A DNA stretch of 64,000 nucleotides. It comes from an uncultured Candidatus Saccharibacteria bacterium. GTDB lineage: Bacteria; Patescibacteriota; Saccharimonadia; Saccharimonadales; AWTP1-31. Under the pieces are notes generated by a model, which was not told the origin of the DNA, made no database searches, and saw nothing but the letters and a program-made list of their open reading frames with translations. Positions 19,409 to 48,390 of the stretch are shown piece by piece; the stretch's first letter is position 1, and each line of letters begins with the position of its first letter. Location of the stretch: NCBI GenBank assembly GCA_937903325.1, contig CALCZR010000058.1:129034-193033 (forward strand). Reading direction: 5' to 3'. Made by a program: the position numbers and the translations under genes.

Positions 19409-19440
19409 AAAAAAGCCCAAACCTTTGGCTTGAGCTTTTT
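19409..19440 (-). terminator. Weak hairpin with flanking T-runs; candidate original terminator of tRNA-Glu, displaced by the insertion
   Basis: AGCC(C)AA/TTGGCT stem with ACCT loop. On the minus strand it is followed by TTTTTT and lies immediately 3' of the 16-bp tRNA-end repeat. Confidence 0.4.
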
Positions 19441-19443
19441 GCG

Positions 19444-19459
19444 TGGTGACCTCACCGGG
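19444..19459. repeat. att core, left copy (TGGTGACCTCACCGGG)
   Basis: Exact 16-bp match to 48316-48331, which is the 3' end (including CCA) of tRNA-Glu on the minus strand. Confidence 0.6.
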
Positions 19460-19569
19460 GTTGGAGCGGAACACCCTAAGCTTACAGGAACTGGATGAGA
19501 AGCTTGAAGAGCTAGGTCTCGTTGAAATAAATGGTAAGATCGTCCTTATAGACAGCGAGGAGACTCGCA

Positions 19570-20052
19570 ATGTTTAATTTACTGCGCCGCAACCAATCAC
19601 CCCTCGACCTGCTAACGTCAAAACTACTCAATGAAGAGACGTTTTATCCTATGTTTACCAAAGATTTAAACAAATGCTCACAGGAGGTAATCATTGAGTC
19701 ACCATTTGTGACGAACAGACGTCTTTCGCAATTGCTACCAACTTTACAGAAACTCAAAGACCGCAAAGTACGAGTAATAATTAATACTCGTGATCCGATT
19801 GAGCACGATGATGAGTACCAAAGAGGAGATGCTCATAGTGCCATTGCAGCGTTGCAGCGAATTGGCGTTCAGGTTCTATATACAGCCGGGCATCATAGAA
19901 AGATAGTAATCCTCGATCGACAAATACTTTACGAAGGTTCACTCAATGTTCTATCCCAAAACGATAGCTGTGAAGTAATGCGACGAGTCGAATCTTCTCA
20001 GCTAGCATGGCAAATGGCCAGATTTGTCGGAATTGATAAGTTCTTAGGCTGA
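19570..20052 (+). CDS. PLD-family (single HKD motif) nuclease, Nuc-like
   Basis: HRKIVILDRQILYEGSLN matches HxK(x)4D(x)6GSxN exactly. Confidence 0.8.
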   Translation: MFNLLRRNQSPLDLLTSKLLNEETFYPMFTKDLNKCSQEVIIESPFVTNRRLSQLLPTLQKLKDRKVRVIINTRDPIEHDDEYQRGDAHSAIAALQRIGVQVLYTAGHHRKIVILDRQILYEGSLNVLSQNDSCEVMRRVESSQLAWQMARFVGIDKFLG

Positions 20053-20590: not shown

Positions 20591-22078
20591 ATGTTCTTGC
20601 TTGCGTCCACTCAACCTAGCTTTATCGAACGATATCTTATCGGCACGTCGCCCACTGCACATCTCCTCAATATCCCAATTATAGTCATTGGCGGATGCCT
20701 CTTTATATGGTTCATCATCCTACCTATCGTTCGGATAATCCTCGACATTCTAGACTACCGGCGGCTACGTAAGCGTAAGTTAGTATTTCTAGAGTTAACA
20801 CCGCCTCATATCAGTACTAAGTCTCCACTGGCAACAACTGAGTTATATGACACTATCCACGGGTTGCTTAGTAGCGTTACGCACAAGGAGCGTCTATTCA
20901 ACCGTAAACATATATTGCCACTTGAGGTCTATGCTACTCGGGAAGAGGGCATCCGCTTTCGAGCAGCCCTTGATCCAGACGATGTTGAGCTTTTTCAACA
21001 ACTAGTTATTGCATACCTTCCTCAGATACAGTTTCGGGAAGTTAAAGATTACATGACGGCTGCACTCAATGGTCAAGATTTTCGTATTTTAGAGTTTGCT
21101 CAGACCAACCACTTTGCTTACCGACTAGCTGCCCATGATAACCTGAAGCAACACGATCCCATGGCCTACATAACCACCGCTATGACAAAACTTGGTGAAC
21201 ACGAGCTACTGGCTATGCAGTTGGTGCTATCTCCAGCTTCACCCAGAGCGGCAAATAAAATACGAAGTCAGTTACTGCACGGTGAAGATAAGGGATTAAA
21301 CCGCGAATGGTGGCACTATCCATTTATCTTTGTTGGCAAAGTTATCAAGCTCATTTTTAGTATGCTCGCTGGCTTATTGGAGATTCTTGGCGATGAAATG
21401 GCAGGCGTTCGAACGCCTCGCCAACAACAAGGATCTGGGTACTACGGCTCGCAGCAAAATATCGGTCCGATCAATAAGCCTGCAATTGATACCATCCATG
21501 CCAAGCTGGCTGAACAGCTATTCAATGTAGATATCCGTGCGTTAGTTGTCGGACCAAACAGTGGACAGCGGGCACAAGGGTTGGCCAACGCCCTCTATAT
21601 GTTCCGTGTACCTGGCTACCAAGGGCTGTACTCCCGAAAAGTGCGGTTGTTTAAAACTAAGCGAGTGGAGCATCGCTTGGACGCCTTTCATAAACGTTTG
21701 CCAGCTACGTTAACCCGTAACTCTTCGGTGCTCGGGACTTCCGAGTTAGCCGCCTTGTACCACTTCCCGTACGGGGAGCATATGCAGTCAGAAGATATGG
21801 TTAAGTCAGTGGCGAAAACACTGCCAGCCCCGCTATCTATGAAGAACCACGCTAATGCTGCCGATTACGATATTGTTCTCGGAACCAATAATCACCATGG
21901 TAGTCGCACCGCTATTGGCTTAACGGCTAAAGAACGAGAAAAGCATGTTTACCTCATTGGTGGTACCGGCAACGGCAAGACCACTATGCTGGAGTACGCC
22001 CTACTGCAAGACATCAAGGCCGGTAAAGGCGTAGCTTTTATTGATCCGCATGGTGACGCTGCTCAGAAACTCCTTTAG
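20591..22078 (+). CDS. TraD/VirD4-like type IV coupling-protein ATPase, N-terminal fragment (ends at in-frame TAG)
   Basis: TM segment IPIIVIGGCLFIWFIILPIV; Walker A GGTGNGKTT; FIDPHGD. The ATG at 20591 is preceded by GGGAG. The ORF ends at TAG 22076-22078 and the same frame continues. Confidence 0.7.
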   Translation: MFLLASTQPSFIERYLIGTSPTAHLLNIPIIVIGGCLFIWFIILPIVRIILDILDYRRLRKRKLVFLELTPPHISTKSPLATTELYDTIHGLLSSVTHKERLFNRKHILPLEVYATREEGIRFRAALDPDDVELFQQLVIAYLPQIQFREVKDYMTAALNGQDFRILEFAQTNHFAYRLAAHDNLKQHDPMAYITTAMTKLGEHELLAMQLVLSPASPRAANKIRSQLLHGEDKGLNREWWHYPFIFVGKVIKLIFSMLAGLLEILGDEMAGVRTPRQQQGSGYYGSQQNIGPINKPAIDTIHAKLAEQLFNVDIRALVVGPNSGQRAQGLANALYMFRVPGYQGLYSRKVRLFKTKRVEHRLDAFHKRLPATLTRNSSVLGTSELAALYHFPYGEHMQSEDMVKSVAKTLPAPLSMKNHANAADYDIVLGTNNHHGSRTAIGLTAKEREKHVYLIGGTGNGKTTMLEYALLQDIKAGKGVAFIDPHGDAAQKLL

Positions 22079-24824: not shown

Positions 24825-24853
24825 ATTCTACCCCCCCCTGAGATACAATGCAA
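24825..24853 (-). promoter_or_regulatory. Candidate promoter with G8 tract in spacer (member 1)
   Basis: Coding strand reads TTGCAT-TGTATCTCA-G8-TAGAAT, spacer 17 nt. The C run on the plus strand is 24831-24838. Confidence 0.5.
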
Positions 24854-26752: not shown

Positions 26753-26780
26753 AGTCTACCCCCCCGTAAGTTATTTGCAA
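26753..26780 (-). promoter_or_regulatory. Candidate promoter with G7 tract in spacer (member 2)
   Basis: TTGCAA-ATAACTTAC-G7-TAGACT, spacer 16 nt. C run 26759-26765. Confidence 0.5.
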
Positions 26781-29189: not shown

Positions 29190-32100
29190 TTAACTTATGG
29201 GTGTGATTACAGTTGGAGCAAACCCTGTTGGGCTTGAATGACTTTGTGGAATTGTCATAGAAACGGTAGTGCCTTTTCCAGGAGTACTTTGGACAGTTAT
29301 GCCTCCGCCAAGTTTCTGCAGAATCATGCGGGTGATATACAAGTTAAGTCCAAGTCCGGGGTGATCAAAGGTTGTCGAATCTGTACCGCGAGTTAATGGC
29401 TCGAAAAGATGTGCCATCACCTCCGGTGACATACCAACCCCTTTGTCATGTACTGTTATGAGCGTTTTGCCGCCAACAGATTTACTGCTGATAGTTACGG
29501 CACTATTGGCATTGCTAAATTGAACAGCATTTTCGACCGTTGATCGAATAATCTGAGTTAGTTCTTCTGGCTGCATTTGCACAACAGAGGTGGAGCTGAG
29601 TAAATTGCTCACGGTCACCCCTTTTTCGGCAGTCAGTTTAGATAGTAACGGTGCAATATTTTGCTCGTAAGCGTGTTGGACAGAAATATTTGGAGCAGGA
29701 CCGCCAACAACACTAAAACGGCTTACCTTTCCAAGTGACTCAGATAATTGGACCAACTGCCCAATACCATTAGTAAGCAGCTTAGTGTCGGGGAACTGCT
29801 CCAGACCTACCGTGCCAGACTGTAATGCACTGGCATGGGAAGCTAAACTGGTAGCCGCATCAGCTACAAAGGATTTCTTTTGATCTAGTAATTGTTGCTC
29901 GGTTGCTAGTCGCTGTTTTATTTGGGTGTGAAGTTGTCGCTGTTTTTTCCAGGCCAGAAACGTTACTACTGCAGCGATCGCACCAAAGAATGCCCACATT
30001 AATTGATTCAGGTATCGCCCCCAGCTATGATCGTAGGATTTACTAAAGTACAATGCCAAATCTGTCACCGTCACGAGCCCTGCAATGCCAGCCAACGGCA
30101 CCCACAACTGTTTGTTTGATGTGGCCAGGACTTCGCCAGAAACTACCGGACGATCTCCAGGTGCTAATGCTTGCTCTGCCTGATACGTGAGGTTATTTGA
30201 TGTTGTCTGCAGGGCGACAAGCTTAGCCTTGAATTGGGCAATAAATTCCGGCTGCAATGCATGCTTTGATGCAATCAACTCTAAAGCGCCGTTCATGATA
30301 CTAAGCGGCGTATTAAGATAATGTGTAATTATCGCCAAGAAATCCGAGACTGATTGCCTAGTAGTACTAACTTTTGTTAGTAGGTCGGCCATAGCTTTCT
30401 GGTACCGATACTCACGCCATGCACGGTAAGCATAGTACAACGCCAGGAGCAGTAACCAGGACAAGAAGAAATATGGTGCGAGGCTTACTTTTGGTTGCTT
30501 CGTTATCAGGGGGAATGGCGCAGGAAGTTCAGTCTCTGGAACTTTTGAGATATCTAATAGTACTGGCTCTTCTTCACCAGCGGGCGTCTCGATAGTAGTC
30601 ACCGGACCTCCACCCGAACTCGTTGGTCGATTTGGGCGTGTAGGGGTAACTGGGGTAGTTGGTGTTGTTGGATTAGTAGGAGTTGGCGGAGTCCCGGGCA
30701 CCAGCACATCGTATATGCCAAGTACCCAGCTACTCTGCCCGACAGCATTAACGGCGGATACCTGGAAATCATATCGGGCACCGGATGTTAGGCCCGTAAT
30801 GGTAGCCGAAGTATTTGTGCTCGGCGGATGGCTAAACTCAAGCCACTCATTGGTACCCTTTAGTCGATATTGTATGCGGTAGTTAATAATCGGTGTACCG
30901 CCATCGTTAGCCGGCGGATCCCACGACAATGCCATGCTCGATGAGGTGGGAGTACCGCCAAGGTTACGCGGGGGCCCAGGCAGGCTCTCGCCTGGAGTAA
31001 ACGTTGGATAGATGGCAACATGGCTGTACCAAACGGGTAAGCTAAAATCCCACGTATCAAGCGGCGGGTTGCTTGTATTATTTTTGAAATAGTTCGGCGA
31101 TTGATTGCCTGCATTTACCGTATGACACACTACCGTATTGTTGTAAATACTCTGAGTTAGTATAGGATCTGCGTCGGGATCGACTGGGCCCTCGACCTCT
31201 AGCCAGTTGGCACAGGGCACATCACCGCTGAGTGAAGCATCAAAGTAGTTATTGACAAGCATAGTATCGGCTTCGCTGGAAGTGATTGTCCCTTGACCTT
31301 CACTAAAAACGTGGGTAAAACGACCGACGAGTGCACCTTCGTTCGGATTGCTGGTGTTTGGTATCGTCGCGGCGCTGAATGAATTAGTAATAGTGCTGCG
31401 GGGGTTAGGGTTTCCGCTTACATCTGTCACACTGACTCCTCCGACAAGACCTCCGGTATTTGAGTCGTAGGCATTTTTTGCAACCTCGGGTGTTTCTGTT
31501 GCAAACTCAGGCTGTTCATTACCTAAAACCCCAGTCGCATATGATGAGGTTATATCGGTATGATCGGCAGTTCCAATCAGGCCACCAACAGAGGCTCCAA
31601 GTTCGATATATCCGTTTTGATCATCATACTCTAAAGTTGTGACAGCGCCTGATACAACACCGGCTGCGTAGGTATCGGTCAGTGTCACCCTCGCGGTGCC
31701 AGAGCCAATCGTTCCACTCACGCCGATCAGGCCGCCCAGTGCGTATCCGGCCTGCACCGAACCGGTAGCATAGGCCTGCCGTATAGCGACTTGGCCTTGG
31801 GCAATACCAATCAATCCGCCCGCGCCAGCTCCACCATTCTGGTTAGCAAAGTAACCTTGGCCCGCTACCGAACCGGTAGCATGTACTCGAGTAATCGTTG
31901 CGGTTCCGAGCGCGCTAATACTACCAATTAGACCACCCGCTCGAACCAGTGTGCCTGTACCCGCTACATAATCTTGTGCGAGGCCAACCGACCCGGTAGC
32001 ATACACGTCCTGAAGCGCATGATTATATCCCTGCAAAGACCCAGCAAGTCCGCCGAGTCCACCAACAACCTGTTTGCCACCTATACTCACCAGTCCTGTA

Positions 32101-35100
32101 GCGTAGCTATCACGCAAAATACTTGGCGTGGCTGTTTGCGATACCGCAATAGTCGTACCAAGCAGTCCACCTGCCAAAGCCGCTAAGTCATCACATTGAT
32201 CCACCTGACACGCTTGGTTGAGCGTCACGCTCACCTCGCCCGAAGCATGTACACCTTCAATTCTCGACCACCCAACAACCATACCAACTGCGCCACCAAC
32301 TATAGGGCCGCCTAATGTATCGATAACAGGACTTACTGCCGAAAAATCAATCGAACCAGTCGCGTACGAATTCCGAATACGCATCGCACTTGTTAAATTA
32401 TTTCCCCCAGTAGCCCCGCCAACCAATCCTCCCGCCGCACCAGAAACTCCGCGCACCACTTGGTTGCCGTCTTCAACAGTAATATCGCCCGATGCAAAAG
32501 AATCAGCAATATCGAGCAAAGTGGCCGAGCCTACTAGCCCCCCGGCGTAAGATACCGTACCATTCGAAATAGTTATGTCCATCGACGAGCTAGAGTCTTG
32601 GATCTTAACGCCCCTCACCAAGGAAGCTTCTGGATCGGCGGGGCTTACAGTTCCTTGATTGGCGCTAAAGCCAACAAGTCCACCGCCAGACCCTTCGCCT
32701 AATTGAATCTGCCCTGTAGAGTTACTGTTCGTTATGGTTAGCGACGAGTCATAGGAGCCACCTACTAAGCCACCGGCAAATGCAGGATCGGGATTACCAC
32801 CAGAGATTGGACAGGCAATTGTGCCGCTATATGCTGAGTCTTCTATGGCGACCGTGCCGACCGCTGTTATTCCTATTAGCCCTCCAGCTCCTTCGCTGCA
32901 TGTACCAGTACTACCCATATCGGAGATAGCATTTCGAAGTGAAATATTAGCGTCTGACATTGCTCCACCAATTATTCCTCCGGAAAGACTACTATCTAAA
33001 ATTGTGCCATGTGATTGGATATCCTGCATGGTAAGTTCGGATTGCTCAACATTTACGTATATCATGCCCAATATGCCCCCACTGGTGCCAGGAGACTGCA
33101 CCACCCCTGTATAGGAAACATCCTGCCATAATACCGACCCGTCAAAGCCGGTACTATCAAAATCAGATAATGTGCCTACAATGCCGCCGGTAAAATCTTC
33201 CCCAATAACATCCCCGGCAACTGTAATGTCGTCTAAAATTGTGTCCGGAGAGGCAGAGGCAATCAGTGTCGCCGCAGGAACATCGTTAGACAACATACTT
33301 GCAACAGAGGAATTTGTTACAGCAAGGTTCCGAATTTCGGCGCTTTGGGCAAACGAAAACATGCCAACCCCTTGATAGCTGGCATTTGCAGGAATATTCA
33401 TTTGCAGATCACTAATACTGAACCCTTGACCGTCAAGAGTTCCTTGGAATGGCGTACTGGGATCACCCACAGGTATCCACCCCTCGCCACCATTCCAGGT
33501 AAGTGTATCGCTACAGTCAATATTGTTCATCAGATGAAATACGCTGCCTCTATACTGATCAAGCACGCTGTGCATCTGTTGACACTCGGTAATGCCGATG
33601 AATACCTGAAAATTCTGCACACTACTCCAACTACCCTGGCCAAATGAATTTACCGCAGCAATACGAAAGTCGATGCTATCAATAACCCGTGCTTCGGCCT
33701 GAATAGCAAGAACAATGGCCTGTGCTAAATCGGTATCGGTTGTATTAGTACTGTCGAAACTCAAGTCTGTTCCGGTGCCATCTACAACAGTAGTCCACGT
33801 GCCGTTTGAAGCCGCCCACCCATAGTTTTGGAGCTCAGCTTGGGAAGCCGCCCAATCACTACCCGGACGGGGCTTGAACTGAATAACGTAATCGGTAATT
33901 GGGGCGCCAAGATCTGGTGCTTGCCAATCGAGCTTAGGGAAAGAAAACGGTGCGAACTGATTGGTTTGTTCCACCCCGGTTACTATCATATTTTGTGGCG
34001 CAGACGGTAACCGACTAGTACTAACGTTTTCGAGAACTTCCCAATCCCCTTGACCGATAGCATTAACTGCGGCAACTCTAACATCGTACAGTTGACCAGC
34101 AACCAGCCCTGATATGAGCTGAGACCGGTCAGTCGATGGTGATCGGCTAACACTATTCCAGGAACTGTTGCCGTGGAGTTTATACTGCACAGCGTAATCG
34201 GTGAGTGGGGTATTGCCATCCAATATTGGTGCCAGCCACTGCGTCGTTAAACTCGAGGGATTTACACTGTTAGTCGTTATAGTTCGCACTTTGCCAGGTA
34301 ACGTAGGTGCCCCCAGTGCCTGGGAAAGAAAGATAGGGGTAGACGAAGTAACCGTCTTCCAGACGTTTGTGAAATCCCACTCTTGGTTTCCCCCGACCCT
34401 AAACGGTGCATAGGTAGAGTTATTATAAAAATAGTTAGGCTGCGAATTACCTGAGTTCACCGCCGAGCAAAAGCCAACGGGCGACTGTTCTGGTAAAATT
34501 ACCGAGAAGTCACTATCTACATAGCCACCTATACAGTTATCAAGCCCGGTTCGAGATGCGTCAATGAAGTTTCCGCTGCCTGAGATATTTACACCAAATG
34601 GTGGATCGGCATTTTCTTCGTATAACCCCACGCCAATAAATCCACCAAATGCCTCACGCTCCATTGGACCAGTCGATATCGTCTGTGATCCAACGGCAAA
34701 TGAATTGTTGATCTCAATTGCCGCTGCCATTGCCGCAAAACCACCTGCCAAAACGACGGAAGGGTCTAGCTCAGGACTACGAGTAATAGAAATAGCCATT
34801 GAACTATAGCTATTGTCTACTGTGCCTCCTAATGCTTGGCCGAATAATCCGCCGGCAAACATGGTAGTTGCCCCTTGGGTGTAAGCACCGGTTATCGTAC
34901 CAGTAGAATACGAGTCCGAGATGTTTGAAGAGTAGCTTACCAGCATCAAACCACTAGCGAAAGCCGCCTTACCACTGTCTCCATTACTATAACTATTGTT
35001 CGTAATATCCATATCGACCGATATCCTAGTCGCCGTGCTAAACATAAACATGCCAACAAATCCGCTGGCATTAACACTTCCACCTGTACCCTCGCAGAAA

Positions 35101-36005
35101 ACCGTTCCAGAAACCGAAACATCACTGAATGAAGAATTACTAGCCTGTGAAGCAATGGGCGCCAAAAGAACATCAGCATTGTCTGTTGCAAGATCTACAT
35201 TGGTAAGTTTTACATTTGTAACAGAAGCACCGATAGCGAGTCCGAACAACCCAGCCTCGGTGTCGTCCGTGAGTATCCGCTGATACAAACCATCTATGGC
35301 ATGACCGTTACCCTCCAATGTGCCTGTGAATTCTTGACCGTTGCTGCCATTTCCAACCGCCACAAATCCAGCACCACTATTCCAAGTGTTTGTTGCCGTG
35401 CAATCTATTGGTCCGGTTAATTCGTAATGGCCCGCTCTATCGTCTTGCATTTCTTGTAATTGTTCACACGTCGATATTTGGTATGGTTGTTCCGGACTGC
35501 CTAGACCAATCCCCGAAAAAGCCTGTGCTGCAGGAAAACCTACAATGGCAATAACTGCAATAAATACCGCTACACACACCTCCGCAACAGCCAACCAGTA
35601 GAATGCAGGTCTCCAGCGGTAATGAAAACGTGGAAACACAACCACACGCAAGTGGTGCAAAAAACCGTACTTAGTTTTTGGAGTAATTTTTATAAGCGGC
35701 TTCTTATGGTGCTGATAATCCATCCACATATATAAAAGAGAGCACACCGATAGAAGTCCAAGACTAGAAAGAGGTGACCACAAGAACGAAAAATTTGTTA
35801 TCTGGCTTGCGCTGGACTCAATTAACCGACTGACAAATTTACTAGATTCTGGTTTGACACGTAAGTAGATCAAAGCGGCAATTGAGGCCAGCATAACAAA
35901 AATAGGCAGCATCTTAACACGTTGCCGATACATCCTATCACTAAAAGCGCCAGCCCTATCTGCTAGGCGTTTACGCTGAACAATTTTTACAGTCGCCTTC
36001 GTCAT
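29190..36005 (-). CDS. Giant (2271 aa) membrane sensor histidine kinase with GLUG-repeat/FN3 ectodomain
   Basis: Three N-terminal TM segments. A roughly 1600-aa ectodomain has two modules opening with an IgA-protease-like motif (ISTCEQLQEM...FTGTLEGNGHAIDGL; ITECQQMHSV...FQGTLDGQGFSISDL), followed by many GGL(V/I)G GLUG-type repeats. Three FN3-like domains and a PT-rich linker follow, then a TM. H-box FLAIITHYLNTPLS, two more TM segments, then HATPase_c (ENAVQFS, DKGVGM, GLGLNL, GKGTTV). Confidence 0.85.
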   Translation of the reverse strand: MTKATVKIVQRKRLADRAGAFSDRMYRQRVKMLPIFVMLASIAALIYLRVKPESSKFVSRLIESSASQITNFSFLWSPLSSLGLLSVCSLLYMWMDYQHHKKPLIKITPKTKYGFLHHLRVVVFPRFHYRWRPAFYWLAVAEVCVAVFIAVIAIVGFPAAQAFSGIGLGSPEQPYQISTCEQLQEMQDDRAGHYELTGPIDCTATNTWNSGAGFVAVGNGSNGQEFTGTLEGNGHAIDGLYQRILTDDTEAGLFGLAIGASVTNVKLTNVDLATDNADVLLAPIASQASNSSFSDVSVSGTVFCEGTGGSVNASGFVGMFMFSTATRISVDMDITNNSYSNGDSGKAAFASGLMLVSYSSNISDSYSTGTITGAYTQGATTMFAGGLFGQALGGTVDNSYSSMAISITRSPELDPSVVLAGGFAAMAAAIEINNSFAVGSQTISTGPMEREAFGGFIGVGLYEENADPPFGVNISGSGNFIDASRTGLDNCIGGYVDSDFSVILPEQSPVGFCSAVNSGNSQPNYFYNNSTYAPFRVGGNQEWDFTNVWKTVTSSTPIFLSQALGAPTLPGKVRTITTNSVNPSSLTTQWLAPILDGNTPLTDYAVQYKLHGNSSWNSVSRSPSTDRSQLISGLVAGQLYDVRVAAVNAIGQGDWEVLENVSTSRLPSAPQNMIVTGVEQTNQFAPFSFPKLDWQAPDLGAPITDYVIQFKPRPGSDWAASQAELQNYGWAASNGTWTTVVDGTGTDLSFDSTNTTDTDLAQAIVLAIQAEARVIDSIDFRIAAVNSFGQGSWSSVQNFQVFIGITECQQMHSVLDQYRGSVFHLMNNIDCSDTLTWNGGEGWIPVGDPSTPFQGTLDGQGFSISDLQMNIPANASYQGVGMFSFAQSAEIRNLAVTNSSVASMLSNDVPAATLIASASPDTILDDITVAGDVIGEDFTGGIVGTLSDFDSTGFDGSVLWQDVSYTGVVQSPGTSGGILGMIYVNVEQSELTMQDIQSHGTILDSSLSGGIIGGAMSDANISLRNAISDMGSTGTCSEGAGGLIGITAVGTVAIEDSAYSGTIACPISGGNPDPAFAGGLVGGSYDSSLTITNSNSTGQIQLGEGSGGGLVGFSANQGTVSPADPEASLVRGVKIQDSSSSMDITISNGTVSYAGGLVGSATLLDIADSFASGDITVEDGNQVVRGVSGAAGGLVGGATGGNNLTSAMRIRNSYATGSIDFSAVSPVIDTLGGPIVGGAVGMVVGWSRIEGVHASGEVSVTLNQACQVDQCDDLAALAGGLLGTTIAVSQTATPSILRDSYATGLVSIGGKQVVGGLGGLAGSLQGYNHALQDVYATGSVGLAQDYVAGTGTLVRAGGLIGSISALGTATITRVHATGSVAGQGYFANQNGGAGAGGLIGIAQGQVAIRQAYATGSVQAGYALGGLIGVSGTIGSGTARVTLTDTYAAGVVSGAVTTLEYDDQNGYIELGASVGGLIGTADHTDITSSYATGVLGNEQPEFATETPEVAKNAYDSNTGGLVGGVSVTDVSGNPNPRSTITNSFSAATIPNTSNPNEGALVGRFTHVFSEGQGTITSSEADTMLVNNYFDASLSGDVPCANWLEVEGPVDPDADPILTQSIYNNTVVCHTVNAGNQSPNYFKNNTSNPPLDTWDFSLPVWYSHVAIYPTFTPGESLPGPPRNLGGTPTSSSMALSWDPPANDGGTPIINYRIQYRLKGTNEWLEFSHPPSTNTSATITGLTSGARYDFQVSAVNAVGQSSWVLGIYDVLVPGTPPTPTNPTTPTTPVTPTRPNRPTSSGGGPVTTIETPAGEEEPVLLDISKVPETELPAPFPLITKQPKVSLAPYFFLSWLLLLALYYAYRAWREYRYQKAMADLLTKVSTTRQSVSDFLAIITHYLNTPLSIMNGALELIASKHALQPEFIAQFKAKLVALQTTSNNLTYQAEQALAPGDRPVVSGEVLATSNKQLWVPLAGIAGLVTVTDLALYFSKSYDHSWGRYLNQLMWAFFGAIAAVVTFLAWKKQRQLHTQIKQRLATEQQLLDQKKSFVADAATSLASHASALQSGTVGLEQFPDTKLLTNGIGQLVQLSESLGKVSRFSVVGGPAPNISVQHAYEQNIAPLLSKLTAEKGVTVSNLLSSTSVVQMQPEELTQIIRSTVENAVQFSNANSAVTISSKSVGGKTLITVHDKGVGMSPEVMAHLFEPLTRGTDSTTFDHPGLGLNLYITRMILQKLGGGITVQSTPGKGTTVSMTIPQSHSSPTGFAPTVITPIS

Positions 36006-38504: not shown

Positions 38505-38533
38505 AGTCTACCCCCCCCGGAAATTTTGAGCAA
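38505..38533 (-). promoter_or_regulatory. Candidate promoter with G8 tract in spacer (member 4)
   Basis: TTGCTC-AAAATTTCC-G8-TAGACT, spacer 17 nt. C run 38511-38518. Confidence 0.5.
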
Positions 38534-40755: not shown

Positions 40756-40783
40756 AGTCTACCCCCCCGTAAGTTATTTGCAA
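40756..40783 (-). promoter_or_regulatory. Candidate promoter with G7 tract in spacer (member 5)
   Basis: Identical to the member 2 promoter and lies inside the exact repeat. C run 40762-40768. Confidence 0.5.
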
Positions 40784-43137: not shown

Positions 43138-43166
43138 AGTCTACCCCCCCCCGATATTTTGAGCAA
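43138..43166 (-). promoter_or_regulatory. Candidate promoter with G9 tract in spacer (member 6)
   Basis: TTGCTC-AAAATATC-G9-TAGACT, spacer 17 nt. C run 43144-43152. Confidence 0.5.
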
Positions 43167-45412: not shown

Positions 45413-45442
45413 ATTGTACCCCCCCCCGAATATAGTGCGCAA
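45413..45442 (-). promoter_or_regulatory. Candidate promoter with G9 tract in spacer (member 7)
   Basis: TTGCGC-ACTATATTC-G9-TACAAT, spacer 18 nt. C run 45419-45427. Confidence 0.5.
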
Positions 45443-45534: not shown

Positions 45535-46314
45535 CTAACGTTCTATGAATAGAAACTCAAATTTAACACTAACCCAGTTATTGTCTAGCTCTCGTTTAGT
45601 CAAATTCTGTAGTCTTCGCTCAAGAGCCTTTGCGTCACAAGCTATGAGCACTACGGGAAAGTCTTTTTCGGTGGCTTTCTGCCACTTTTCTGATTCGGCA
45701 TAGGTAATGTAGCGTCTTATGCTGTTTCTAATCCTCCAGTAGGGCGCACTGGCCTCATAGAAGCTTAGGAAATAGTCTGGAGCGGTTAGTTGAAGCTTGC
45801 GTACAACGGCGCTGTCTTTAATATCTTCGTTCTTTTTTAGGTACGCATCGGTTAGGTCTCTTGGGAGCTTATATTTCAAGCTAGGCAATTCGCTCTTGCT
45901 GAAGAACTGAAATTGCTTGGGGTAATTTTGTTTGATGAATACGTAGGCTTTAAAGACGTTTAGCCTGTGTTGGATATGAACGTCGTCTTTGTTCTTGTCA
46001 TAATAGGCTTGCTTGAGTACGTTTGGATCTACAAATGGCTGCTGTCTGAGTATTTGTATTCCTTTTGGTAGTAAGTGATATGTAGCCGGTTTACCAATGA
46101 TCTTATAGCTTTTGTCATAGTTCTGCCCGATGTATCCTTGATCTACTAATATCTTTAGTCTTGTTAGTATTACTCTAGTATGTTTAGCTCCTTGACTTGA
46201 GGCAATGAGTTGAGCTGTGGTATAGCGAAATTTATAGAGTGTTGTGAGTAGTTGAAGTTGATGTGAGTTTATAGGTCGGTGTTTGGTGTTGGTAGGTTGT
46301 GGTGGTGTATTCAT
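45535..46314 (-). CDS. Replication-relaxation-family-like wHTH protein
   Basis: The N-terminal INSHQLQLLTTLYKFRYTTAQLIASSQGAKHTRVILTRLKILVDQGYIG fits the replication-relaxation pattern seen on Gram-positive plasmids and ICEs. Motif-level call only. Confidence 0.5.
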   Translation of the reverse strand: MNTPPQPTNTKHRPINSHQLQLLTTLYKFRYTTAQLIASSQGAKHTRVILTRLKILVDQGYIGQNYDKSYKIIGKPATYHLLPKGIQILRQQPFVDPNVLKQAYYDKNKDDVHIQHRLNVFKAYVFIKQNYPKQFQFFSKSELPSLKYKLPRDLTDAYLKKNEDIKDSAVVRKLQLTAPDYFLSFYEASAPYWRIRNSIRRYITYAESEKWQKATEKDFPVVLIACDAKALERRLQNLTKRELDNNWVSVKFEFLFIER

Positions 46315-46354: not shown

Positions 46355-46640
46355 TAAGTAAAGATGCAAGCCCTTAACTCCTTATTATTTAATATTTATA
46401 TATCGTATCGGCAGGATATCCACAGTTGTATTTAATACCTTGGTAATACACTTGTAGGTATACTTATTAGTGGTATATACTAAGCTTATAAGTGGGGGTA
46501 GCCATGATACAGAAAGAACCAATCCAGCCGAGCCCAGAAGACACTTCCGAAGCGCCGTTGTCAGATAATGAGCGTATCGATCTCATCGCTAATTTACTTT
46601 TGGATTACTTAGATGAAGAGCAATCGGGAGAAGAAGGGTC

Positions 46641-48356
46641 ATGCAAGACGACGCAAACAAAAATGCTGTAGCCGCGATTAGAGTCTCGACGACCAAGCAG
46701 GGTACGGAGGGTGACTCTCCCGAAGCTCAGAAAGAGCAAATTGAGCGCTTTGCTTTAACCCGTGGTATCACCATAAAAAAGTTCTTTGTCTTTTTGGAAT
46801 CCGCCAGTAAAGAGCAGCAGCCAATGCAGGAAGCTATTGATTACTGCAAGAATCCTAAGAACGGCATTGAACTGTTTATCATAAAATCGATTGACCGTTT
46901 TACTCGAGGCGGATCACTATCGTACGACCTGCTCAAAAACCAGCTGGAAGCAAATAATGTGTCATTGGTAGACATTTACGGCGTGATTAGCTCGCGGCAG
47001 GTGAATACCCTAGAACACCTCGGCTTTGAATATAAGTGGAGTAAATACTCTCCAAGCAAGAAATCCGAGATACTAGAGGCCGAGCGTTCCAAGGATGAAC
47101 TGCGGGATATTATGAGTCGTATGATTGGGGCTGAAATCCGCTATACCCAACTCGGTTTTTGGATGCGACAACCGCCGTTCGGTTTTGTCAGTGAGAAAGT
47201 CGAAACGAACAATGGAAAACGTTGCATATTACAACCCCATCCGACTGAAGCCCAGTACATTACAAAGATTTTCGATCTGCGTGCTCGTGGCACGATGCGT
47301 GATATGGAGATTGTTGAGGAAGTTAATAAGCTAGGCTACCGAGGACGGGTGCACTATGTTCGTGATAAGAGCGATCGATCTAAAGTTTTAAAGAAGCGCG
47401 GAGGCGATCCCTTAACCCTCAAGGCCTTAGATCGTATCGTCACTAATCCAATCTACGCTGGGATTAATGCCGAGAAGTGGACAGACGGCAAGCCGGTACA
47501 GTGCGCTTTTAAAGGCCTAGTATCTATTGACCAGTTCAACCGAGCTAACAAAGGCAAAAAGGTCATCACCAAAGACGAGCAAGGTGACATTGTCATCATA
47601 AAAAGAGAGCTAGAGCCACGGTATGCGACCATCAAAGGTTCTCGTAACCCTGATTTTCCGTACCGCAAGTTTGTGCTGTGCCCAGAATGCCACAGACCGC
47701 TTATCGGCAGTGCTTCACGCGGCAAGTCCGGTAAACATTATCCGGCCTATCACTGTGACAAACGAGGCCACTATTTCCGTGTGCCTAAAAAGGAATTGGA
47801 GGACAGAGTGAACGAGTTTATTAACGGTATTCGTGTCTCGCCGGAGCAGGTCGATAGGGTTCTGAACGTTATTGAAGCTGAGTGGAAGAAACGGGAACAA
47901 GCACTCAAACAAGAGCTTGAGACGCTTGATAGCCACATTCAGGGCTTACGTACTGAAATCGAAATGACTGGAAGCAAGATTAAGCTCGTAAGCAACGAGA
48001 CAGCAATTAAATATATAGAGGAGGACATTGTGCGTATAGAACAACAAATTAAAGAGTTGGAGGCTACTAAGATGAAGAAGATAAACCGTAAACCTATTAA
48101 TTGGCAACGCTTGAAGGCTAGGGTTCGTTACCTGGCGGAACACTTTGATGAGCTACTGTTACAACAGATTGATCCGGTCAAAAAAGCACAGTTTTTTGCC
48201 GCATTATTCAATAATTTTCCAACATTTGAAGATTTAGCCAGCGGAACACCCGGCAAGCCAAACTTTACAGGGGTGAATCCAATATTTTCTCTCGCTAAAT
48301 TACCTACTACCCATTTGGTGACCTCACCGGGAATCGAACCCGGATTGCCGGGATGA
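46641..48356 (+). CDS. Large serine recombinase (integrase)
   Basis: Resolvase catalytic motif AAIRVSTTKQ, recombinase domain, zinc ribbon CPECHRPL...YHCDKRGH, coiled-coil region. The last 14 codons (48315-48356) are antisense to tRNA-Glu. Confidence 0.9.
   Translation: MQDDANKNAVAAIRVSTTKQGTEGDSPEAQKEQIERFALTRGITIKKFFVFLESASKEQQPMQEAIDYCKNPKNGIELFIIKSIDRFTRGGSLSYDLLKNQLEANNVSLVDIYGVISSRQVNTLEHLGFEYKWSKYSPSKKSEILEAERSKDELRDIMSRMIGAEIRYTQLGFWMRQPPFGFVSEKVETNNGKRCILQPHPTEAQYITKIFDLRARGTMRDMEIVEEVNKLGYRGRVHYVRDKSDRSKVLKKRGGDPLTLKALDRIVTNPIYAGINAEKWTDGKPVQCAFKGLVSIDQFNRANKGKKVITKDEQGDIVIIKRELEPRYATIKGSRNPDFPYRKFVLCPECHRPLIGSASRGKSGKHYPAYHCDKRGHYFRVPKKELEDRVNEFINGIRVSPEQVDRVLNVIEAEWKKREQALKQELETLDSHIQGLRTEIEMTGSKIKLVSNETAIKYIEEDIVRIEQQIKELEATKMKKINRKPINWQRLKARVRYLAEHFDELLLQQIDPVKKAQFFAALFNNFPTFEDLASGTPGKPNFTGVNPIFSLAKLPTTHLVTSPGIEPGLPG
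48316..48331. repeat. att core, right copy (TGGTGACCTCACCGGG)
   Basis: Exact match to 19444-19459. It forms the 3' acceptor/CCA end of tRNA-Glu. Confidence 0.6.
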
Positions 48357-48390
48357 GAACCCGATTTCCTAACCGTTAGAAGATGAGGCC
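48316..48390 (-). tRNA. tRNA-Glu(CUC), CCA encoded
   Basis: The reverse complement GGCCTCATCTTCTAACGGTTAGGAAATCGGGTTCTCATCCCGGCAATCCGGGTTCGATTCCCGGTGAGGTCACCA folds as a 75-nt cloverleaf. Anticodon loop TTCTCAT. Confidence 0.85.

Follow-up and report, generated by a model that had tools for sequence, protein, structure and literature searches.

A Saccharibacteria large serine recombinase gene that crosses its own attachment core, with a putative 3' end at the opposite boundary of the integrated element

In SSV1, attP lies inside int and the target is a tRNA gene; integration cuts int into two pieces of substantial size, which leaves a disrupted copy in the integrated state. In the mycobacteriophages BPs and Brujita, which have a tyrosine integrase, attP lies inside the repressor gene, and integration alters the C-terminus of the repressor and thereby its behaviour. 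For the large serine integrases of phages and ICEs (phiC31, Bxb1, SPbeta SprA, TP901-1 and TnpX/TndX), attP lies, to our knowledge, outside the integrase ORF, and the targets are protein-coding or intergenic DNA. The attB sites of phage Mx8 are at a tRNA-Asp locus. The attP of Mx8 is found within the integrase coding sequence (IntP/IntX), and integration provides a new 3' end, the resulting enzyme being still active (PMC6070905).

We analysed a stretch of 64,000 nucleotides (hereafter the window) from an uncultured Candidatus Saccharibacteria bacterium, in which the large serine recombinase (LSR) gene of an integrated element runs across an attachment core at the 3' end of a tRNA-Glu gene. Mx8 is the closest precedent, since there too attP is in the integrase gene and C-terminal residues are replaced on integration, but the likeness is one of design and not of family: the Mx8 enzyme is a phage tyrosine recombinase, whereas the window has an LSR on a mobilisable/conjugative Saccharibacteria element, and the tail displaced there borders on a nuclease gene and has been kept throughout a large family. 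An earlier interpretation made from the letters alone (the sequence-only reading) had likened the locus to SSV-type integrases. The analogy holds for an attachment site within the integrase ORF and for the tRNA target, both shared with SSV1, but the window's gene loses only the last 38 of 602 codons and keeps all its catalytic and DNA-binding domains, and its product is of the serine rather than the tyrosine type. Mx8 IntP/IntX, with replacement of the C-terminus only, is the nearer parallel. As in BPs and Brujita, integration changes the C-terminus of an encoded protein, but it is the repressor that is remodelled there and the recombinase itself here. With the phage and ICE integrases named above, the window's family has in common, as judged from Pfam matches and a structure model, the order of resolvase, recombinase, zinc ribbon and coiled coil; unlike them, it targets tRNA 3' ends, has attP in its own last codons and possesses about 90 extra C-terminal residues past the coiled coil. 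Our search of the literature found no description of a tRNA-targeting Saccharibacteria LSR family or of attP inside a serine integrase ORF; a preprint on tycheposons mentions tRNA-targeting elements bearing LSRs, with no ORF crossing. The window's family shows that serine integrases, and not tyrosine integrases alone, can specialise on tRNA 3' ends.

Anatomy of the integrated element

The element bounded by direct repeats extends over 19444-48331 (28.9 kb) at the 3' end of a tRNA-Glu(CTC) gene. The repeat is a 16-mer core, TGGTGACCTCACCGGG, with two copies in the window (19444-19459 and 48316-48331) where shuffled sequences lead one to expect none, and the right copy forms the end of the tRNA-Glu(CTC) gene on its 3' side, including the encoded CCA (48316..48390, minus strand, by ARAGORN). 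Between the cores lie genes for a PLD-family nuclease, a 76-aa ORF, an HTH regulator and a TraG/VirD4-like protein, then cargo, a Replic_Relax gene and the recombinase gene. The features referred to below, with the related loci in which they recur, are as follows.

19444..19459, plus strand: attL core, the tRNA-Glu 3'-end copy that forms the left element boundary; one of the two copies in the window, and the exact point at which homology to loci L010 and L151 starts
19458..19577, plus strand: stored recombinase 3' end (putative), a G codon plus 38 codons (LERN...RNV) and TAA, from translation; joins in frame to recombinase codon 563 on recombination of the two cores
19570..20052, plus strand: PLD-family nuclease gene (PLDc_2; PF13091, 42.4 bits); also found after a long-form integrase in L001, L151 and L171
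20059..20289, plus strand: 76-aa ORF without a Pfam match, beside the PLD gene; the position is also filled in L001, L010 and L171
20262..20474, minus strand: HTH_3 (Cro/CI-type) regulator (PF01381, 46.2 bits); kept in L001, L002, L007, L010 and L171
20570..23239, plus strand: TraG/VirD4-like coupling protein gene (TrwB_AAD_bind, TraG-D_C), broken by an in-frame TAG at 22076-22078
45535..46314, minus strand: Replic_Relax (relaxase-like) gene (PF13814, 27.3 bits, cut-off 25.3); adjoins the integrase gene in all related loci
46492..46671, plus strand: acidic 59-aa ORF overlapping the integrase start; an ORF of 49-55 aa is at the equivalent place in L001, L002, L007, L010 and L171
46641..48356, plus strand: large serine recombinase, integrated form, 571 aa, identified with Pfam; antisense tRNA supplies the final 7 codons and the stop
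48316..48331, plus strand: attR core, within recombinase ORF codons 559-564; L171 homology to the integrase side of the window stops at 48325
48316..48390, minus strand: tRNA-Glu(CTC), the integration target (ARAGORN; sequence read directly)

Both the sequence and ARAGORN agree with the original observation that the recombinase ORF passes through the 16-bp core in frame, as ...HLVTSPG, and terminates 7 codons on, inside the antisense tRNA, as IEPGLPG and a stop. Core codons 559-564 are the reverse complement of the tRNA 3' end (TGG = CCA), and the TGA stop is the complement of tRNA positions 35-37 (48354-48356). In this integrated form, 564 of the 602 codons stay together and all recognisable domains are kept. 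At the left core, the frame in the recombinase register, with codon GGG at 19458-19460, reads LERNTLSLQELDEKLEELGLVEINGKIVLIDSEETRNV followed by a stop. Translation bears out the claim that the recombinase frame continues at 19460 for 38 codons as far as a TAA (19575-19577), which overlaps the ATG of the PLD gene (19570) as ATGTTTAA, and joining of the cores in silico gives a product of 602 aa. The Shine-Dalgarno sequence of the PLD gene, GAGGAG, sits within the tail codons. The statement that the integrated stretch has no start codon of its own needs amendment, in that two in-frame GTG codons (19443 and 19446) are present in or beside the attL core, with a stop 4 codons upstream; no Shine-Dalgarno-like motif was found before these two codons.

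By its domains and modelled fold, the window's recombinase belongs to the large serine recombinases and is not of the tyrosine type. PF00239 (Resolvase) scored 38.6 bits against a cut-off of 23.3, and in the catalytic motif AIRVSTTKQ, R14, S16 and Q20 are invariant in 50 homologues, the serine being Ser16. PF07508 (Recombinase) and the PF13408 zinc ribbon scored 21.0 (cut-off 21.1) and 17.9 (cut-off 25.3), respectively; PF07508 is above the cut-off in L151 and L057 and is on record for many homologues, PF13408 is on record for few, and C347, C350 and C372 are invariant among the aligned homologues. The AlphaFold model of a related long-form integrase, P0009, has coiled-coil helices at 401-447 and 453-482 (pLDDT 80-90), and a fold search with this model returned the SPbeta, Bxb1 and phiC31 integrases at E values of 5e-17 to 4e-8, supporting the Recombinase and zinc-ribbon domains, with full-length fold alignments to the SPbeta and Bxb1 integrases at 5e-17 to 7e-13. 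A sequence search of solved structures (PDB) with P0009 as a single sequence gave no match, and the solved-structure matches obtained with the profile of the A2 alignment were rejected as spurious, being to the coiled coil only. A Pfam scan of the element's 19 larger ORFs, which did not take in every ORF, showed no tyrosine recombinase. That the acidic 59-aa ORF (46492..46671) encodes a directionality factor or another accessory protein is only a suggestion, with no protein-family search behind it.

We consider it very probable that, in the joined (attP) configuration, the large serine recombinase gene has its true 3' end in the 117-bp stretch. In this mechanism, attP lies within the recombinase ORF at codons 559-564, and integration into the tRNA-Glu gene detaches the last 38 codons, which stay at attL before the PLD gene, 29 kb off, and are replaced by 7 antisense-tRNA codons with a stop in the anticodon loop. 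Recombination between attL and attR restores a 602-aa enzyme with a tail helix, and rejoining of the cores puts the PLD gene and the 76-aa ORF directly behind the integrase gene. The predicted attP junction of the window's element is ...CCCATTTGGTGACCTCACCGGGGTTGGAGCGG..., and the predicted empty attB is tRNA-Glu(CTC) followed by CGCAAAAAGCTCAAGCC. These predictions define attP and attB (tRNA-Glu) sites for Saccharibacteria, a group with few genetic tools.

C-termini and joined forms in related sequences

A search with the joined 602-aa sequence returned about 1,600 relatives, and the named matches were from Candidatus Saccharibacteria. Among the best 120 of these approximately 1,600, about 104 end in translated antisense tRNA (e.g., ...MVTSRGIEPRLPG) and are 565-610 aa long, mostly 570-572 aa, and about 12 have contiguous long tails, with total lengths of 586-604 aa. 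The long tails display the pattern WNxL..L..L..LG and align in register with the 38 residues of the window, so that the proposed extension has its counterpart in homologues in which the gene is contiguous. Of 74 complete ORFs from species-representative genomes, 62 have their stop within a tRNA annotated on the other strand; this is tRNA-Glu in 53 of the 62 and Leu, Lys, Gln, Arg, Asp or Ser in the remainder. In the window and among the homologues P0004-P0011, P0036 and P0124, the isoforms with a tRNA-Glu target all end in ...LPG and a stop that is the complement of anticodon-loop positions 35-37, and at non-Glu targets the ORF reads deeper into the antisense tRNA (e.g., ...TPAGFEPAIFWMRTRYP...), giving database proteins of 574-601 aa that are in part a translation of tRNA. 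The 570-572-aa "full-length" integrases in databases are integrated-state isoforms, with last residues that are translated tRNA. From the C-termini of these relatives, attP within the ORF is not a chance frame but a conserved design found throughout this family of integrative, mobilisable or conjugative elements of Saccharibacteria. The sequence-only reading had estimated that a 38-codon stop-free run would be expected at about 1 in 6 for one locus, but a chance open frame unrelated to the recombinase is already refuted by the homology of the stretch, in the same register, to the tails of long forms and to dozens of attL tails.

The closest genome match (L010, GCA_964409615.1) carries an integrase 96% identical to that of the window on an element of 10.7 kb, which is integrated in a different gene, tRNA-Glu(TTC). 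DNA homology extends exactly from L010:998, corresponding to 19444 of the window, through the tRNA end, and the flanks are unrelated. The direct repeat in L010 is only 12 bp (TGGTGACCTCAC), and to the right of it attL has element-derived sequence as in the window (CGGGGTTGGAGCGG...); the repeat and the homology limits together place the crossover within TGGTGACCTCAC, inside the ORF. Judging from this sister element, the 16-bp identity of the window's cores is partly a coincidence with the CTC isoacceptor. The attL tail of L010 has the same frame and length, with its stop overlapping the PLD ATG, and in the first 26 codons it differs from the window's tail by 6 synonymous changes and no replacements. 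An attL search in 80 genome loci, for which the 10-kb flank was too short for most elements, recovered attL only in L096 (the L010 locus) and in the short-tailed L116.

Each half of the predicted junction was found in an assembled contig joined to a partner, reciprocally. In L171, the integrase is identical to that of the window at 548 of 564 aa (97%), with 90% DNA identity up to window position 48325 in the core, and this window-type integrase is fused in frame to a P0009-type tail, followed by PLD, HTH and TraG genes. In L151, a contig of 10.4 kb on which the genes have the integrated order in circularly permuted form, the ORF of an integrase with 56% identity runs across the core and on into MERNTLSLQELDEKLEELGLVEVNGKIILLDSKEADNA and a stop overlapping the PLD ATG, and DNA identity to the window leaps to 85-88% exactly at 19444 and onward, over the tail-PLD module. 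The proposal that attP lies inside the integrase gene is upheld by L010, L151 and L171, in each of which similarity to the window has its limit exactly at the core, placing the crossover within the ORF. In L001, the genes are arranged as Replic_Relax (minus strand), a small ORF, the 602-aa integrase, PLD (160 aa), a 74-aa ORF, HTH (minus strand) and a 587-aa ORF in a TraG-like position with no Pfam domain on record, which is the order predicted for the circularised element of the window. The genes after the long-form tail match the order at the left end of the window's element, namely PLD, small ORF, opposite-strand HTH and TraG-like. Long forms also occur in L002-L009, where the next gene is Mrr-like or of another kind.

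With these contigs and alignments, the anatomy of the locus, the homology of the tail and the existence of joined forms are established. The circular junction expected of the window's own element was not found, its attP junction CCATTTGGTGACCTCACCGGGGTTGGAGCGG having no exact match in metagenome contigs and a degenerate version none in viral contigs, and the exact 602-aa joined protein is absent from a collection of 15 billion proteins; what is present, in the assemblies of relatives, is the joined configuration. No contiguous-form contig has a terminal overlap, and the contiguous forms, being derived from assemblies, could be tandem arrays or plasmid-like replicons and not excised circles. 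The L001 contig (JGI Ga0633495_0000129, 87 kb) encodes, beside the long-form P0009, a second family member, P0045 (572 aa), suggesting that one replicon harbours several related elements or that there are tandem arrays.

The gene that follows the tail is not always PLD. In L002-L005, whose integrase is 94% identical to that of the window, an Mrr_cat / NA-iREase1 nuclease of a different fold comes directly after the tail (at about 6931-7473 in L002), and in L007 (11805-12053) and L008 an 82-aa ORF of unknown function is in this place, with a full T4SS. That a non-homologous nuclease takes the place of PLD suggests a need for a nuclease immediately after the integrase when the cores are joined.

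Within the 90% cluster of the window's integrase, we found at least 3 different long tails and several tRNA tails, and a fourth long tail was present in the 94%-identical P0003. The switch of tails in all of these is at HLV = TGGTG of the core, which identifies the core as a module junction. Near-identical integrase heads are in this manner joined to different tail-nuclease modules at an intragenic boundary, a use of the core that explains the mosaic evolution of the elements. The crossover itself is inferred to be probably in TGGTGA (CCA, discriminator and first acceptor bases), since near-identical integrases occur with identities between attP and tRNA end of 16, 8 and 6 bp. In a search by eye for dyad symmetry at the core, the sole inverted motif, GGGTGAATCC / GGAACACCC, was centred outside the region of identity and was discarded. 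In addition, L057 has a distinct second LSR lineage (523 aa) fused to a class-2 tail and PLD, indicating that the attP-in-ORF design extends beyond one integrase lineage. Class-2 tails (W[LM]G...FQTF...IRQLLDE..., with an acidic end) are found upstream of PLD in L016, L017, L020, L023, L057 and others, and they enter the tRNA end in another frame (W = TGG = CCA).

Conservation and possible roles of the tail

A scan of metagenome contigs based on PLD yielded 80 loci, 68 of them with enough upstream sequence. In none of the 68 is an integrase gene located upstream of PLD, and at least 43 keep an open frame of at least 39 codons, from an (M/L/V)V start to the PLD start, that matches one of the two tail motifs. 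The tails were assigned to class 1 (30), class 2 (13), "other" (14) and short (11), and several of the 14 "other" tails fit class 1 or 2 by eye. Pairs among six close tails have dN/dS values of 0.09-0.47, mostly 0.1-0.2, and the variable columns are distributed by codon position as 20/8/26, a coding signature in the integrase frame. These values show the tail to be under purifying selection at the protein level. The conservation of TGGAAC (W-N) about 24 bp from the core could nevertheless reflect a DNA-binding arm of attP, not protein. The motif WNxL..L..L..LG is kept whatever gene follows, including where PLD is replaced by Mrr_cat or by the 82-aa ORF, and this ties the tail to the integrase. 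In the AlphaFold model of P0009 (mean pLDDT 76), the usual LSR body and the coiled coil (401-482) are followed by an extension made of helices, then by a flexible linker of low confidence that spans the core, and finally by a tail helix at 563-583, with moderate confidence for the tail and no information on a partner. We take the tail to be a conserved amphipathic helix.

It could be argued that attP merely overlaps the integrase 3' end and that the tail is translated but has no role, the two isoforms being equivalent. Retention of all recognisable domains by the 571-aa form, the low-confidence linker between tail and body, and the differences in tail length and sequence between lineages are compatible with this. 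We think such a neutral by-product improbable, because dN/dS is about 0.1-0.2 over the 38 codons in several pairs, the hydrophobic periodicity is kept across 55-70% identical integrases with any downstream gene, and the tail is open in most integrated copies.

We give even less weight to the possibility that the tail is a small gene in its own right, or a leader peptide of PLD, translated in both states from the NTG-GTG codons that the tRNA end creates and fused to the integrase only incidentally. Only 4 of 19 attL loci have a Shine-Dalgarno-like motif ahead of the tail, compared with 15 of 19 (GAGGAG) for PLD, and this rarity argues against a stand-alone micro-gene, as does the host-derived, non-conserved nature of the region upstream. 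Moreover, no joined form has a stop between integrase and tail, the motif persists with Mrr_cat or the 82-aa ORF in place of PLD, and PLD has a GAGGAG of its own. These points have to be set against an in-frame NTG GTG at every attL, the overlap of the tail stop with the PLD start, and the conservation of the tail at loci without a nearby integrase.

The reading that we prefer remains that of a recombinase gene with its 3' end stored at attL, and on it we base a tentative functional proposal, in which integration switches the isoform of a serine integrase, the tail helix exists only in the excised state and, as a built-in part of the enzyme, regulates directionality or synapsis or tethers the enzyme to the transfer machinery, and tail-nuclease modules are shuffled at the intragenic core. 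The component that the two isoforms differ in activity or directionality, as IntP and IntX of Mx8 do, rests on analogy and is no more than a possibility, since no functional difference has been shown. Coupling of the expression of PLD and the downstream genes to the joined state is an inference for which promoter scans give no support; scans for promoters and terminators at both element ends returned the same counts as shuffled sequences and are uninformative on excision-dependent transcription.

One-way integration into genomes relies mainly on serine integrases as tools, and how their directionality is controlled is under active study. Nature offers a ready-made experiment on directionality in a large family whose integrase C-terminus depends on the integration state. 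If the proposal is true, it would represent the first state-dependent isoform switch known for serine integrases, and the family would furnish Saccharibacteria and other CPR bacteria with ready-made tools for integration at tRNA-Glu genes.

Mobility and cargo of the window's element

We found no VirB4 or other T4SS genes in the window's element, although its relatives L007 and L008 have a full T4SS, and from its apparent gene content it is best called a mobilisable element. The in-frame TAG leaves two ORFs, of 502 and 376 aa, in place of one for the coupling protein; the orthologues of L010, L151 and L171 are uninterrupted, at 868-888 aa, with a K/R codon where the window has TAG. Unless the TAG is a sequencing error, the copy in the window is probably transfer-defective, and it may no longer move.

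The architecture could be real for the family while the window's element is a fixed remnant that no longer excises, the contiguous forms being tandem arrays or plasmid-like relatives. The broken coupling protein gene, the absence of the element's own junction from the collections searched and the presence of the long-form loci L007 and L001 on contigs of 87-96 kb are consistent with such a fate, but it is the integrase that excision requires, and not the coupling protein; neither the integrase ORF nor the tail nor either core is damaged, L151 has almost the same tail, and an identical integrase protein (P0121) is present on 6 contigs. We regard a fixed remnant as unlikely, though it deserves more consideration than either a neutral tail or an independent small gene.

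Directly past the tRNA fragment at attL there is, by eye, a hairpin AAGCC...GGCTT with a T-run (19409-19443, minus strand). This hairpin is probably the original terminator of the tRNA-Glu gene, now 29 kb from it; the terminator scan made no call there.

The cargo (23310-45508) has been enlarged by segmental duplication and contains 7 paralogous ORFs without a Pfam match, 2 sortase genes and 2 DUF3800 genes, in addition to a 2271-aa protein with fn3 and histidine-kinase domains (29190..36005). In L010, the cargo has only 2 paralogues and 1 sortase, in an element of 10.7 kb compared with 28.9 kb in the window. Poly-C tracts of 7, 8 or 9 bases are located at 24831-24838, 26759-26765, 38511-38518, 40762-40768, 43144-43152 and 45419-45427, in a conserved context, GGTAxTxTAC-Cn, just upstream (minus strand) of 6 of the 7 paralogous cargo genes, which encode proteins of roughly 490-560 aa. 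The variable length of the tracts suggests phase variation of surface proteins by slipped-strand mispairing.
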